Shown piece after piece: positions 1-15,044 of a stretch of DNA of 64,000 nt. Source of the stretch: a phage; assembly GCA_012690745.1 (NCBI GenBank), contig GCA_012690745.1_4086.2, one strand, 5' to 3'. Each line of letters opens with the position of its first letter. The first letter of the stretch is position 1. The notes below the pieces were generated by a model. It was not told the DNA's origin. It made no database searches and saw only the letters and a list, made by a program, of their open reading frames with translations. Position numbers and translations under genes: made by a program.

Positions 1-330
1 AATCCATTAAAACAATATAATGTTTATGGTGATTCTATTATCAAATTAATCAAAAACAAAGATAGCTTTGATTTTGAAATAAATGTTTTAGATGATAATT
101 TTGACGAAGTACCAGTAAACCCTGAAATCTGTGATATTTTAAACAGTTTAAAAGGTAGTACCTACAATATATCATCTGATTTAATGTTTCAGTACTCATT
201 AATCCATAAAGATATTGAAAAGTATATTGAATGCTCCAAAATTTTGAATTATCTTTACGATGAATTTAAAAAGAGTTCTAAAATAACTGCATACACTTTG
301 TACAATATTCCTAAAATGGTGAATCTTTGA
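1..330 (+). CDS. hypothetical protein, 3' part (5' end outside window); EEYFQ-SLV-D family member
   Basis: frame 1 open from window edge to TGA 328-330; C-terminal LMFQYSLIHKD matches motif of the 46.8-63.9 kb array. Confidence 0.5.
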   Translation, partial: NPLKQYNVYGDSIIKLIKNKDSFDFEINVLDDNFDEVPVNPEICDILNSLKGSTYNISSDLMFQYSLIHKDIEKYIECSKILNYLYDEFKKSSKITAYTLYNIPKMVNL

Positions 331-1463
331 CAAATACAGTACTGGCAACTCCACCGTCTGTAATATATTGTCCAGTACTGTAAATTTGTATACCATCGGT
401 TAAGTAAGTTCTGTATAAAGTTGCTGTAACATATACGTTATTCATATTCATCTCTATTGGTAGTACACATTTGGTATAGGCCGACACATCTGTTTGTGTA
501 CCTATACCCAATTGACCTGCGTTATCGCCTGTGTTATAACCAGTTGCGTAAACACCTAATGAAGTTATAATATGATTAGAAAAATATGAATAACCCACAC
601 TGCTTCTTATTATATCACCTGGTGCTTGTGTTGTTTGTCTTAACGAAATATATGTTTGTGATGTAGAACCATTTGCTAACTGACCAAAGTATTGTCCACC
701 ACCATGATATGCAAATAATTTATTAGTACTATTATTACTTGCTATAGCAAAAGCGAAGTAACTTGAGTTTGTTGTATAATCTTTCACCGTATAGGTATTA
801 GTTATTTGAGAACATAACGTGTACTTTGAATATAACGTCATGTCGGTTGTACCTACGCCTGATATTGCACCAGTATAATACAATCTCCCATCGGTTCCAA
901 TAAATCCTTGCATAAGAAAATTTGCCAGTATTTTGGATGGTGTTACTCCAGTAGGTACTGTTCCTTGTACAAATGATGAAAGTGAATCGGTACTTCTACC
1001 ATTTCCCAGTTGTCCATAACTACCATAACCCGTATTCCATATCGTGTTGTCTGTACATAATACGCTTAATGCACCTGCACTAACTGCAATTTGTTTTATT
1101 GTTTTTCCAAGTGCTGTTATCCTATCAAACACTATCTTTGCAGAAGCCCACGTTGTTGACTTATCAGTTGATAAACCGAATGATGCACCATTTCCAGCAT
1201 ACCACATCGTATTATTTTTCTTTTTAATTAATGTTGACTCATACCCGAACCCATAGATCTTCTACGTTTGTATTGCACAAAATCCATTTCGTTTGTGTTA
1301 TAATATTACCTATACCCATTTGCCCAAACTCTTGAGAGCCTCTACTGTACAACGTACCATCTGACATAAGGGCAAAAACTGTTGTATCAGATGAAGCTAT
1401 TTTTGTAACAGAAGGTTGTATGTTCTTTTTTGATGATGTGATAATTCTTCCAAAGGGTAGCAT
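311..1463 (-). pseudogene. RCC1-like repeat protein paralogue, apparently frameshifted
   Basis: N-terminal ORF 1239..1475 (MLPFGRII from ATG 1463) and C-terminal ORF 311..1207 are in different frames; shift near 1240-1262. Confidence 0.5.
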
Positions 1464-1502
1464 TGTATCCTCCAAATGTAAATCGTTATTATATTTAGGA
1501 CA

Positions 1503-1530
1503 AAAAAATGCCAGTACAAGGCACTGGCAT
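1503..1530 (-). terminator. intrinsic terminator-like hairpin
   Basis: TGCCAGT-N7-ACTGGCA hairpin with A/T run. Confidence 0.45.
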
Positions 1531-1555
1531 AAAATCTAAGCAGAAGGCATATCCT

Positions 1556-1666
1556 TCATCTTAATAAATGAAAATTGTGTACCAGTATTTGTGGTTCCAA
1601 TTTCTTTATTTCAGGAAGAGTTGGTTTAATATTTCCGTACTTTAACATTCTTCCAAAAGGTAACAT
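1556..1666 (-). pseudogene. 36-codon N-terminal remnant of an RCC1-like paralogue
   Basis: MLPFGRMLKYGNIKP... then stop; ATG 1664-1666 directly after stop of upstream gene; no body. Confidence 0.4.
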
Positions 1667-1676
1667 ATTCCCTCCT

Positions 1677-12693: not shown

Positions 12694-12721
12694 ATAAGAA
12701 AGCCAGTATCAAGTACTGGCA
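12694..12721 (-). terminator. intrinsic terminator
   Basis: GCCAGTA-N5-TACTGGC hairpin plus T-run. Confidence 0.55.
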
Positions 12722-12726
12722 TCGTA

Positions 12727-13836
12727 TTACTTGGGTAATGGAATTGTGGTCCATCTATTTGCGGCAACGTCACCTGGTACATATGTAGGACTACCACTTA
12801 CAGCAATAGTTTCATTACCATCATATACAACACTGAAGTTTGTGCACGTATACAACGCTGCGGCATCTGGATTGTAATTTTCAAGTGTTAGTGTATTGGT
12901 GAACAAATTCAATGCAGTAGTTGAGCCGTTTTTACCATATGCACCTGTAGTATATATCTTTCCTTCTGTTGTTGAGTACATATTAACATATGACCCAGAT
13001 GATGATTTAGCAATTTTATCTATCTTGCTATCTATTGTTTTAGAGTTAAATTGAAATGGATATACCTGTACGTTAGTATCTAAACCATTTCCCAGTTCCC
13101 CATTTAACTGCCACCCTGTGTGGTACATTCCCGCATTTGTATATGCAAGCGTACTATACGCATTACCACCCATTATTTTAGTGCCAGATAATTTTAAACC
13201 AAACGATGTCCACTTACCAGTTTCATTTCCTATGGAACCATAAGCACTTGTACCACACGCACGAAGCTCGCCATTTGACGTTAGAAGCACTGTATTATTA
13301 ACGTTACCAAATATATCAATAACCTGATTAGTGCCATTATTCAGTACTGAAGTAAAAGTACTCTGTGAGTAAGTACTACCTGAACCAACAGAACCATTTG
13401 TGTTCATACCTCTTCCATATACAATTTTACCATCAGCACTAACATAGTGCATTGAATCAAAACCAATGGATATCATTTTAATATCAGATATATCTGGAAA
13501 TGAAGAAGTTACATCTACTCCACCTAGTGGAATTGTATTATTTCCTAAACCTAATGAGACATTAGTTCCGTGCATTATAAATTTATCTTCTTTAAAATAT
13601 AAAATATTATATCCACCAGCCCATGCATTATTAACGCCATTTGTAATCAGTACCCATTTATTTTGTGTAGTAGTTCCAGTAATATTTAACTGTTGATAGT
13701 TATTGATTCCACAACCATATAGCGATCCATCACCATATAGTACATATAAATTATCATATCCTGCAATAACTTTCTTTATTTTTTTGGGTACAGGTGCTAC
13801 ATTCCCATACTTTAACATTCTTCCAAAAGGTAACAT
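12727..13836 (-). CDS. RCC1-like beta-propeller repeat protein (MLPF-tag family)
   Basis: ORF track; MLPFGRMLKYGN; GELGNG/LGLGNN motifs. Confidence 0.7.
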   Translation of the reverse strand: MLPFGRMLKYGNVAPVPKKIKKVIAGYDNLYVLYGDGSLYGCGINNYQQLNITGTTTQNKWVLITNGVNNAWAGGYNILYFKEDKFIMHGTNVSLGLGNNTIPLGGVDVTSSFPDISDIKMISIGFDSMHYVSADGKIVYGRGMNTNGSVGSGSTYSQSTFTSVLNNGTNQVIDIFGNVNNTVLLTSNGELRACGTSAYGSIGNETGKWTSFGLKLSGTKIMGGNAYSTLAYTNAGMYHTGWQLNGELGNGLDTNVQVYPFQFNSKTIDSKIDKIAKSSSGSYVNMYSTTEGKIYTTGAYGKNGSTTALNLFTNTLTLENYNPDAAALYTCTNFSVVYDGNETIAVSGSPTYVPGDVAANRWTTIPLPK

Positions 13837-13874
13837 TATTTTCTCCTTTATTCATTATACTATATTTAATACAA

Positions 13875-13902
13875 AAAGAAATGCCAGTATCAAGTACTGG
13901 CC
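13875..13902 (-). terminator. intrinsic terminator
   Basis: GCCAGTA-N5-TACTGGC hairpin plus T-run. Confidence 0.55.
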
Positions 13903-13907
13903 TATAT

Positions 13908-15044
13908 TTAAATTATTGTTGGTAATGGTAATGGTATAAATTCATCACTCGATGGCAAACCATATAACGTAGTTGCATTTCCAGAATAATACCATCCCGT
14001 TGAATCTTGCACTATAGATAGATATGCTAACGATGCCGCCTTTGTTATATCATTAAACCCGTGTGGTACTTCTTTAAATGCAGATGAATATTCAACACCA
14101 GGATCACCAGAAGATAGTGTATTGTTAGTACCAGCATAATATAAAGTATTGCCATCTGTGCTTATAGCAAAAGAAAGAACAGAGTTATTCATATCACTCC
14201 ACAAATCCCTAAACCTGCCTCTATATCCGGTTAATTCTGTATACGAATATACGTTTGTGGTATTTGAAGAAGAATTACCTAGTTGATAATTTCTATTTTG
14301 ACCTGCTATAACATATCTAGTGATACCATTAGTATCATAATATAATATACCAGAGTTTAATGTTGACATACCAACTGCACATTCGGATGCAAATTCGGGA
14401 GCAGAGTACAAATTATAAGAAGTTAAATTTGTGCTAGTACCCAATGCTCCAGTATTGCTTATACCACAGCGGTAGTAACCACCAGTAGTACTAGAATATA
14501 TAGTACCAGATAGAGAAGTGTAGAATTTTGAAACATTTGATGCAACTAATACAGCATTAACTTTGCTTGTTGAACCACCAAATGATTGGTTATTATCATA
14601 TCCTTTAGCATATAATCTATTATCATTTGTAAGTAATCCTACACAATAATAAGTTATTTTCATTTCACGAACTGTGCTTAGATTCACTGCACTAAATTGT
14701 GTCGTAACATCTTTCCATGTAACAACTTTAGAACTTGTCGAACCACCAGATTCAAACCATTCATCACCACAGTATAAAATTTTATTATCTACAGTTAATA
14801 CAACGCATACTAAATTACTAGCACAAGCAAACTTAACATCATCTCTAACTTTAGTCCACTCGGTTACATTCACTATAGTATCAGTTCCTATACCTAATTT
14901 GCCATACGCATTATTACCACGCACCCATAATTCATTATCCTCGGTTATTAGTAATAATGAATTAGCACCTGCAACAATATCACGTATTTTTAGTTTATCT
15001 GGTGCTACGTTCCCATAATTCATCATTCTTGCAAAAGGTAACAT
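13908..15044 (-). CDS. RCC1-like beta-propeller repeat protein (MLPF-tag family)
   Basis: ORF track; MLPFARMMNYGN; first gene of the minus-strand array. Confidence 0.7.
   Translation of the reverse strand: MLPFARMMNYGNVAPDKLKIRDIVAGANSLLLITEDNELWVRGNNAYGKLGIGTDTIVNVTEWTKVRDDVKFACASNLVCVVLTVDNKILYCGDEWFESGGSTSSKVVTWKDVTTQFSAVNLSTVREMKITYYCVGLLTNDNRLYAKGYDNNQSFGGSTSKVNAVLVASNVSKFYTSLSGTIYSSTTGGYYRCGISNTGALGTSTNLTSYNLYSAPEFASECAVGMSTLNSGILYYDTNGITRYVIAGQNRNYQLGNSSSNTTNVYSYTELTGYRGRFRDLWSDMNNSVLSFAISTDGNTLYYAGTNNTLSSGDPGVEYSSAFKEVPHGFNDITKAASLAYLSIVQDSTGWYYSGNATTLYGLPSSDEFIPLPLPTII

Follow-up and report, generated by a model that had tools for sequence, protein, structure and literature searches.

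A shared N-terminal tag and a repeated upstream cassette in a mosaic array of RCC1-like propeller genes of Rak2-like jumbo phages

In a 64,000-nt stretch of phage DNA (GenBank assembly GCA_012690745.1, contig GCA_012690745.1_4086.2; hereafter the window, with positions counted from its first letter), the minus strand from 311 to 15044 carries a tandem array of RCC1-like β-propeller genes, whose products begin with the same short peptide tag and most of which are preceded by a common noncoding cassette. On balance we favour an explanation in which the tag is a virion-docking peptide retained on swappable binding modules and the cassette is a recombination unit resembling the PeSLs of T4-like phages. 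By megablast, window positions 1-16000 are 97-98% identical to Escherichia phages slurp01, G17, Sharanji, SHEFM2K and PBECO4 and about 91% identical to 121Q, all of which are members of Asteriusvirus, Rak2-like jumbo myoviruses with genomes of about 350 kb. The matches are patchy, with any one record covering at most 49% of the query. RCC1-like genes in multiple copies, and the detection of their products in virions, have already been published and annotated, but we found no description of the shared tag, the cassette, tagged non-RCC1 members or mosaic arrays in open-access literature text.

When up to three mismatches are allowed, the tag-encoding motif ATGTTACCTTTTGnAAGAATG occurs 13 times, and every copy lies on the minus strand, within 1443-15044; shuffled sequences are expected to contain none. 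Ten of these copies head intact open reading frames (ORFs) of 369, 369, 378, 380, 382, 383, 389, 392, 396 and 400 aa, while the remaining three belong to two frameshifted genes (starting at 5292 and 1463) and to a 36-aa remnant (1666). A reading made from the letters of the window without database searches, the sequence-only reading, had proposed thirteen tandem paralogues of 369-400 aa. Thirteen tags are indeed there and the sizes agree with the ten intact ORFs, but thirteen intact members are not. The window genes are 62-100% identical to members of arrays annotated as "RCC1 / DNA condensation protein" in 121Q, PBECO4, phAPEC6 and Munch.

The tag has the consensus M-L-P-F-x-R-M-x-x-Y-G-N and is followed by a Pro-rich linker (…YGNIAPxP…). 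Its residues 1-12 are on average 80% identical among the ten intact window proteins, compared with a mean of 20% for the bodies outside these residues. In the AlphaFold models of the gene 10 and gene 8 products, residues 1-14 and 1-12, respectively, have a predicted local distance difference test score (pLDDT) below 50 and lie outside the propeller, and the tag is thus modelled as a disordered, free N-terminal tail. The same values led us to reject a role of the tag as the closing strand of the propeller.

Searches beyond the window indicated how widely the tag is distributed. A tblastn search with a 26-aa tag query returned only Rak2-like jumbo phages (61 records), from nine host genera: Escherichia, Salmonella, Erwinia, Yersinia, Cronobacter, Pectobacterium, Serratia, Klebsiella and Xanthomonas. 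An exhaustive search of 1.84 billion representative proteins with a hidden Markov model of the tag gave 59 matches; among the 55 that were examined, two were chance repeat proteins, and in the others the match begins at residue 1, or slightly further in where the start had been called upstream. A padded tag profile run against a database of 5.8 billion proteins yielded only 14 short candidates and was uninformative. In Salmonella phage Munch, 17 tandem genes all start with M/V-I-P-F-x-R/K-I-L-x-Y-G/A-N, many of them translationally coupled and without a cassette, and in Pectobacterium phage CBB each of seven tandem genes opens with MLPF…Y(G/A)N. The tag, whose motif across these phages is M[LI]PFxR..xYGN, is ancient, restricted to Rak2-like phages and selected as a peptide.

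It is also portable. Although 49 of 55 representatives carry the tag on RCC1-like bodies, it also heads Kelch propellers (EJP2_508, matching Kelch_6 at 65 bits, P0068, and CBB gp425, gp427 and gp429), ConA-like Laminin_G_3 proteins (CBB gp428 and gp431, Munch_534), a Gly_rich_2 protein (Munch_544), a Gly-rich 245-aa protein in G17 and 121Q, and a 223-aa family (CBB gp426 and gp430, GAP32_002). Among the relatives the tag is found on four unrelated folds (RCC1-like, Kelch, Laminin_G_3 and Gly-rich).

Published virion proteomes connect the tagged proteins to the phage particle. Mass spectrometry (MS) of phAPEC6 virions detected gp003, 005, 006, 007, 009, 010, 549 and 551, each with 1-5 peptides and 3-17% coverage (PMC7247149). 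All seven of these proteins that we translated, a set that excludes gp010, are headed by the tag, and window genes 10, 7, 6 and 2 encode proteins 96, 92, 82 and 62% identical to phAPEC6 gp005, gp549, gp003 and gp009, respectively. In CBB, five of the seven tagged proteins were MS-positive (CBB_548, 549, 551, 552 and 553; supplement of PMC5259590), and GAP32 gp001 (MLPFSRIIQYGNIAP…) is reported to be a structural protein identified by mass spectrometry. Two of the CBB peptides map to the N-terminus: YANVIVEYATK corresponds to residues 10-20 of CBB_548, within the tag, and VVSNEYEINLDFSR to residues 15-28 of CBB_553. Because YANVIVEYATK was recovered from virions, the tag stays on the mature protein. 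The sequence-only reading had suggested that the invariant N-terminal peptide might be a virion-attachment or targeting signal. This suggestion fits the disordered tail, the four folds and the published virion data; that the tag acts in attachment, through which partner and at which location, is what we infer beyond them.

The closest precedent for such a docking peptide comes from the branched receptor-binding systems of Klebsiella phages KP32, K11 and KP34, in which the secondary receptor-binding proteins carry a conserved N-terminal peptide of 29 aa. This peptide is separable from the body, is required for incorporation into the virion and still works when moved to a foreign domain (Latka et al., PMC13352976). 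As here, a short N-terminal peptide is common to otherwise unrelated virion proteins, and the array tag is likewise short, disordered, retained in the virion protein and found on several folds. The two systems differ in that the array proteins are predicted monomeric propellers or lectin-like proteins rather than trimeric β-helix depolymerases, and in that a genome holds 10-17 members rather than one or two. The two peptides are not known to be related in sequence, and the partner of the Klebsiella peptide is a T4gp10-like branching domain.

On a different precedent, from the T4 superfamily, the tag would be a capsid-targeting sequence (CTS), and the propellers would be packaged in the head, possibly in the inner body, and ejected with the DNA to act as a diverse set of protein-binding inhibitors of host defence. 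The layout of T4 internal proteins is the same, with a conserved N-terminal peptide of about 10 residues on diverse, unrelated packaged bodies encoded in a plastic locus (PMC3012670). Furthermore, the annotation of these phages includes a portal, a prohead core protease and a scaffold of the T4 type, phAPEC6 has an inner body of unknown composition, and the array proteins are of low abundance in virions. However, T4 CTSs are cleaved and end in (L/I)-x-E, whereas the array tags lack a conserved protease site and its Glu, the window tags having K, N, Q or R at position 9, and the tag peptide persists in the CBB protein of mature virions. Unlike the small, basic internal proteins of T4, the tagged bodies are neutral propellers of about 40 kDa, ConA-like lectins and Kelch proteins, whose passage through the tail tube would require unfolding; their lectin-type folds moreover suggest extracellular ligands. 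We therefore regard head packaging as unlikely, though it is the strongest competitor of the docking model.

We further considered that the array proteins might be abundant soluble proteins of the infection phase that co-purify with virions, with the tag recognised by a chaperone, a modification enzyme or a degradation system. RCC1-like and Kelch propellers of other viruses, such as the poxvirus Kelch and giant-virus RCC1/F-box proteins, usually act on intracellular host proteins, which speaks for this possibility, as does the low MS coverage. Nevertheless, three virion proteomes, obtained by two laboratories from phages of three genera, independently contained tagged proteins, among them five of the seven in CBB, and the late-like promoter core upstream of the array genes matches that of structural genes. 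A purely soluble role thus appears still less probable than packaging in the head.

At the DNA level, the tagged genes are 97% identical over nt 1-21 and 88% over nt 1-36, and they fall to 36% over the next 100 nt, which is background. The start was thus near-identical over about seven codons, with the motif kept to codon 12-15, and not over the roughly 20 codons proposed earlier. Codons 1-7 are homogenised with non-preferred codons: Pro is encoded by CCT in 61 of 65 tags compared with 29% in the bodies, and Gly is never GGT in the tags compared with 62% GGT in the bodies. This near-invariance in nucleotides, together with the exchange of 5' ends among paralogues described below, would be expected if the tag had no function as a peptide and were merely carried along, as a translation-initiation region subject to gene conversion, with an expression and recombination cassette. 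Contradicting this, Y10, G11 and N12 are kept while varying synonymously (TAC 31 and TAT 30; GGG/GGA; AAT/AAC), and P3, F4, R6, Y10, G11 and N12 are preserved in Munch and CBB through two to four synonymous codons each, in many genes that lack the cassette and are translationally coupled. In addition, the motif is maintained across genera on bodies less than 30% identical. We consider a tag that is only DNA very improbable.

The second shared element is the cassette itself. A spacer of about 70 nt precedes nine of the genes, and gene 13 has a more divergent copy of about 90 nt. Its layout is a hairpin, GCCAGTAC-nnn-GTACTGGC, with a T-run, followed by GTATTAAATATAGTATAATGAATAAAGGAGGGAAAT and then the ATG. 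Eleven aligned upstream regions showed 80% mean column identity with invariant TAAATAT and AAGGAGG, TAAATAT being the sole invariant element in all of them besides the Shine-Dalgarno sequence and the start codon. The near-identical upstream cassette seen in the letters alone is therefore real, with gene 5 as the exception. The start of gene 5 (10196) lies 8 nt past the stop codon of gene 4 with GGAGGG in front of it and no cassette, from which we conclude that it is probably translationally coupled. Terminator-like hairpins were enriched in the region (23 compared with 6.6 expected), and ten minus-strand hairpins fall exactly in the array spacers; annotators of G17 labelled the same hairpins as terminators. 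Ten T-run hairpins are followed within 10-15 nt by TAAATAT and a TATAAT-like sequence. Sigma-70 promoters in the cassettes were rejected, because they were not enriched (76 found, 84 expected).

In phAPEC6, (A)TAAATA lies 20-60 nt upstream of the genes for the major capsid protein, scaffold, protease, baseplate and several other virion proteins, and a T4-late-like ATAAATA motif has been described for structural genes of CBB and GAP32. The promoter-like core of the cassette thus suggests late expression of the array.

The array is a mosaic when compared between phages. We clustered the tag-headed proteins of the window, slurp01, G17, 121Q and EJP2 at 60% identity or more, which gave 24 ortholog groups (A to X), and compared their order, with fs denoting a frameshifted member and a bracketed number a stump of that many codons. 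The order is A B C D E F G H (fs) I J (36) (fs) in the window, A B C D E K G H (fs) I J L (fs) in slurp01, A D E F G K H M N J O L (44) in G17, G K E K H M G I (fs) O B (fs) in 121Q and P E Q G R S D T B U V W C X in EJP2. Because the group order is shuffled across the five phages, units must have been gained, lost, replaced and moved. Many of the homology blocks that megablast found end at 2781-2799, 4003-4021, 7847, 11472 and 12729-13908, which are the spacers between array genes; for slurp01, G17, PBECO4 and 121Q the ends lie at 2799, 4003, 7847, 11472 and 13868-13908.

A second signal of exchange came from orthologue pairs. In seven such pairs the bodies differ by 0.3-1.5% and the first 51 nt by 2-14%; pooled, 27 of 357 positions were mismatched in the first 51 nt compared with 55 of 6975 in the bodies (Fisher p = 4e-16). 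The tag region of orthologues thus diverges about 10 times as much as the body, and 5' ends are swapped between paralogues. Slot-by-slot composition, block ends at cassettes and the difference between 5'-end and body divergence, in comparison with four relatives, all support the cassette-mediated exchange that the layout had suggested.

The cassettes resemble the PeSLs of T4-like phages (Arbiol 2010, PMC2839356; Comeau 2014, PMC4122927), which mediate modular shuffling there and are likewise composites of a stem-loop and a promoter, of about 50-70 nt, that flank variable genes and mark the boundaries of insertion, deletion and replacement between close relatives. The PeSL, however, has an early sigma-70 promoter and unrelated flanking ORFs, whereas the array cassette has a late-like TAAATAT core, extends into coding sequence as the tag and serves one tandem tagged family. 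In this respect the array would extend the PeSL idea of a regulatory cassette as a recombination joint to a cassette that reaches into the gene.

The bodies adopt a predicted RCC1-like fold. PF25390 (RCC1-like domain) matched all ten intact proteins with E-values of 1e-14 to 1e-31, although below its 150-bit cut-off, and nine of the ten passed the gathering score of RCC1 (PF00415) or RCC1_2 (PF13540), the exception being the gene 8 product (18.9 compared with a cut-off of 22). The AlphaFold model of the gene 10 product (AF2, 17-sequence alignment) reached a pLDDT of 90.5 and a predicted TM-score of 0.88, and Foldseek aligned it to seven-bladed propellers in the PDB (UVR8, RPGR, HERC2 and RCC1) with TM-scores of 0.65-0.77 and E-values of 1e-14 to 1e-20, at 11-19% sequence identity. 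The model of the gene 8 product (pLDDT 74.8) has the same layout, and both are all-β with about 28-30 strands. The seven-bladed propeller anticipated from repeat motifs is thus borne out by structure prediction. The array proteins share the repeat signatures and the fold of RCC1-like domain propellers (RCC1, UVR8, RPGR and HERC2; PF00415, PF13540 and PF25390), but have the Rak2-specific tag in addition, and nothing suggests a guanine nucleotide exchange or chromatin function. RCC1-like propellers also occur within some phage tail-fibre proteins, and giant-virus hits were obtained too.

The earlier description of the repeats as highly variable did not hold. Body against body, BLASTP gave 23-35% identity across long alignments, and the ratio of nonsynonymous to synonymous substitution (dN/dS) was 0.13-0.35 in 11 of 12 orthologue pairs. 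The bodies of the paralogues are therefore old lineages, anciently diverged and each under purifying selection, and diversifying selection on them was rejected. The remaining pair is that of gene 3 (11479-12657): compared with its slurp01 orthologue (22480-23658) it showed a dN of about 0.047, a dS of about 0.046 and a dN/dS of about 1.0, with a tag region 20% different, a pattern that relaxed or positive selection acting locally, or a recombinant patch, might explain.

The composition of the array proteins bears on the function under which they are annotated. They have isoelectric points of 5.1-8.2 and about 12% charged residues, with K+R roughly equal to D+E (about 6% each), their bodies consist of 37-42% Gly, Ser, Thr and Asn, and no basic tail was seen in them. 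That they are chromosome or DNA-condensation proteins organising the 350-kb genome in the head, as annotated in 121Q, PBECO4, Munch and other records and suggested by the phAPEC6 authors, is the least probable of all the explanations, because the name was carried over from eukaryotic RCC1 by fold alone, neither the isoelectric points nor the few charges nor the missing basic tail suit such a role, Kelch, lectin-like and Gly-rich proteins that have nothing to do with DNA share the tag and the locus, CBB packages a genome of similar size without a reported RCC1-like gene, and a condensing protein would have to be far more abundant than MS indicates.

Two members of the array are interrupted by frameshifts. 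Both need a +1 shift at a zero-frame CGG, at 5161-5163 in gene 9 (context GGA-CGG-AAA) and at 1245-1247 in gene 13 (GTT-CGG-GTA-TGA), and skipping the C restores the RCC1 consensus (…LYMRGGNQLSKMG… and …DLWVGYESTLIKKKNNTMWYAG…), with the predicted junction peptides …MRGGNQLSK… and …EDLWVGYESTLIK…. The ten intact genes do not use CGG in any of 3,848 codons, and the inserted C duplicates no adjacent base. The gene 9 frameshift is common to at least 12 isolates, and the arrangement of gene 13 is identical in slurp01 and 121Q. Sequencing error was rejected as the cause, since the same frameshifts appear in independently sequenced isolates. Downstream of the frameshift the body remains under purifying selection (pN/pS 0.17 compared with JNE01). 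From these contexts, the two genes may use a programmed +1 frameshift at a rare codon, and conserved shifts at an otherwise avoided CGG could tune the amount of tagged product.

We propose the following working model, in which the tag acts as an incorporation signal. Each unit would combine three parts, namely the regulatory cassette with its roughly 70 nt, a short linear motif at the N-terminus and a globular ligand-binding body. The cassette would provide an intrinsic terminator for the upstream unit, a promoter-like TAAATAT element and a Shine-Dalgarno sequence, and the flexible tag would dock every member at one common site on the virion. In this way a changeable repertoire of binding modules might be loaded without re-evolving an attachment domain each time, while the cassette and the tag-coding 5' end would offer the homology for gain, loss, replacement and reordering of units and for 5'-end exchange. 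As to the location, we lean, speculatively, towards external display or an adhesin role, because all body types are ligand-binding folds, the bodies are near-neutral and rich in Gly, Ser, Thr and Asn, RCC1-like propellers occur in tail fibres, and hair-like fibres tipped with small globules, themselves unexplained, are present on these phages.

Several observations weigh against this model. No docking partner was found, and Pfam gave no domain in phAPEC6 gp244 (baseplate wedge), gp245 (3323 aa, 382 kDa), gp240 or gp238. Known docking peptides are used by trimeric tailspikes, whereas the propellers are predicted to be monomers, and the low MS coverage means that the detected proteins could be co-purifying contaminants. 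The timing is read from a core of 6-7 nt; the cassette has TTAAATAT or GTAAATAT, whereas bona fide late genes have ATAAATA, and a weak sigma-70-like match (CTGGCA-N17-TATAGT, scoring only 9/12) overlaps three cassettes. Finally, the frameshifts split the tag from a body that is still under selection; if these bodies are made untagged, they must work without the tag.

A bolder form of the docking model holds that the tag is a universal loading signal of Rak2-like phages, by which each virion would receive a stochastic mix of 10-17 different modules (RCC1-like, Kelch, lectin-like and Gly-rich) or, less likely, an arsenal of injected anti-defence proteins. We put this forward tentatively and consider it doubtful as a whole. 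The hypothesis that one tag marks a fold-independent set of virion proteins would require it to be necessary and sufficient for loading through a single partner; if so, a 12-residue tag would be enough to load any chosen protein into or onto a 350-kb phage particle, and therapeutic jumbo phages could be engineered through it to carry cargo or further binding modules. The locus also deserves attention because close Asteriusvirus isolates differ mainly at this array, and because current labels in dozens of jumbo-phage genomes ("chromosome condensation regulators", "HERC1", "S-layer", "Ig domain") hide a coherent system.

The individual members, all on the minus strand and numbered from the 5' end of the array, are as follows. 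Gene 1 (13908-15044; 378 aa, tag MLPFARMMNYGNVAP, group A) encodes an RCC1-like propeller matching Pfam RCC1, RCC1_2 and PF25390 and is 97% identical to its slurp01 and G17 orthologues. Its upstream region (15045-15147), divergent from the plus-strand genes, has the TAAATAT promoter-like core and a Shine-Dalgarno sequence without a terminator hairpin. Gene 2 (12727-13836; 369 aa, group B), the gene matching MS-detected gp009, is preceded by a cassette at 13837-13907 (hairpin 13883-13901, TAAATAT, AAGGAG). In the next seven cassettes the hairpin is likewise accompanied by TAAATAT and a Shine-Dalgarno sequence. They precede gene 3 (392 aa, group C; cassette 12658-12726, hairpin 12702-12720), gene 4 (10205-11407; 400 aa, group D; cassette 11408-11478, hairpin 11452-11474), gene 6 (7847-9016; 389 aa, group F; cassette 9017-9086, hairpin 9059-9083), gene 7 (6627-7775; 382 aa, group G, matching MS-detected gp549; cassette 7776-7846, hairpin 7822-7840), gene 8 (5365-6555; 396 aa, group H, the second AlphaFold model; cassette 6556-6626, hairpin 6602-6620), gene 9 (4113-5292; cassette 5293-5364, hairpin 5338-5358) and gene 10 (2890-4041; 383 aa, group I, matching MS-detected gp005; cassette 4042-4112, hairpin 4087-4105). 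The same elements precede gene 11 (1677-2819; 380 aa, group J; cassette 2820-2889, hairpin 2865-2883). Gene 5 (9087-10196; 369 aa, group E) is the member without a cassette.

Gene 6, whose phAPEC6 counterpart gp003 was detected by MS, is 100% identical to a G17 gene and is missing from the corresponding slot of slurp01. The frameshifted gene 9 comprises a tag ORF (5113-5292, 59 aa) and a body ORF (4113-5189) in the +1 frame. Gene 12 is a remnant (1556-1666) consisting of the tag and 36 codons; its counterpart in slurp01 is intact (PSLUR01_00139, 389 aa), and relative to slurp01 the window has lost about 1,039 bp by deletion. Gene 13 (311-1463), with the divergent tag MLPFGRIITSS, is split into a 74-aa ORF (1239-1463) and a body ORF (311-1207) in the +1 frame, and follows the divergent cassette at 1464-1555 (hairpin 1508-1530, TAAATAT, GGAGG).

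Annotation of these genes is uneven. The mechanical ORF list of the window runs two of them (2890-4107 and 7847-9178) upstream through the cassette, for example as MPVLCTGFLICIKYSIMNKEGI-MLPF…; this happens because no in-frame stop interrupts the cassette. The added stretches are artefacts, and the genes in fact start at the tag ATGs, each with its own Shine-Dalgarno sequence. In phAPEC6, several intact tag-headed ORFs within 1-14000 (starts at 2434, 3614, 6063 and 7325) are unannotated or have a wrong start. The naming of the locus is inconsistent between records, which use "S-layer protein", "Ig domain-containing protein" and "E3 ubiquitin-protein ligase HERC1" as well as "BNR repeat domain protein", "GTPase regulator" and "DNA condensation protein". 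The "Ig domain-containing protein" of fEgEco12 was rejected as a fifth body type, as it is a misannotated RCC1-like orthologue of gene 2.

Outside the array, the plus strand from 15148 to 19739 adjoins it with at least 17 tandem ORFs of 59-75 aa that form a paralogous family (29 significant BLASTP pairs). Many begin with MN(K/N)(E/H)(H)KE(F/Y)Y and end with …L(L/I)(I/F)(Y/F)RY; all members are annotated as "hypothetical" in relatives. ORFs of at least 150 aa are nearly absent between 17600 and 49000, where the GC content is 37-40% compared with 30-35% elsewhere; this part is dense in genes of 60-140 aa, and relatives annotate small early-type genes there. Stop-codon reassignment was rejected as the reason, because none of three recodings opened long ORFs. 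Scans of the window for tRNAs and Rfam families found nothing. A segment of about 2 kb (19740-21700) is ORF-poor and contains a sign change in GC skew. At 20795-20961 the 8-nt unit CTAGACGG is repeated about 17 times in tandem, in the manner of iterons. The palindrome TCAGTACTGA has 16 sites in the window compared with 0.14 expected, seven of them within this segment, which could be an origin or operator region. One of the palindromes lies in the spacer of a perfect TTGACA-N16-TATAAT promoter at 20378-20405.

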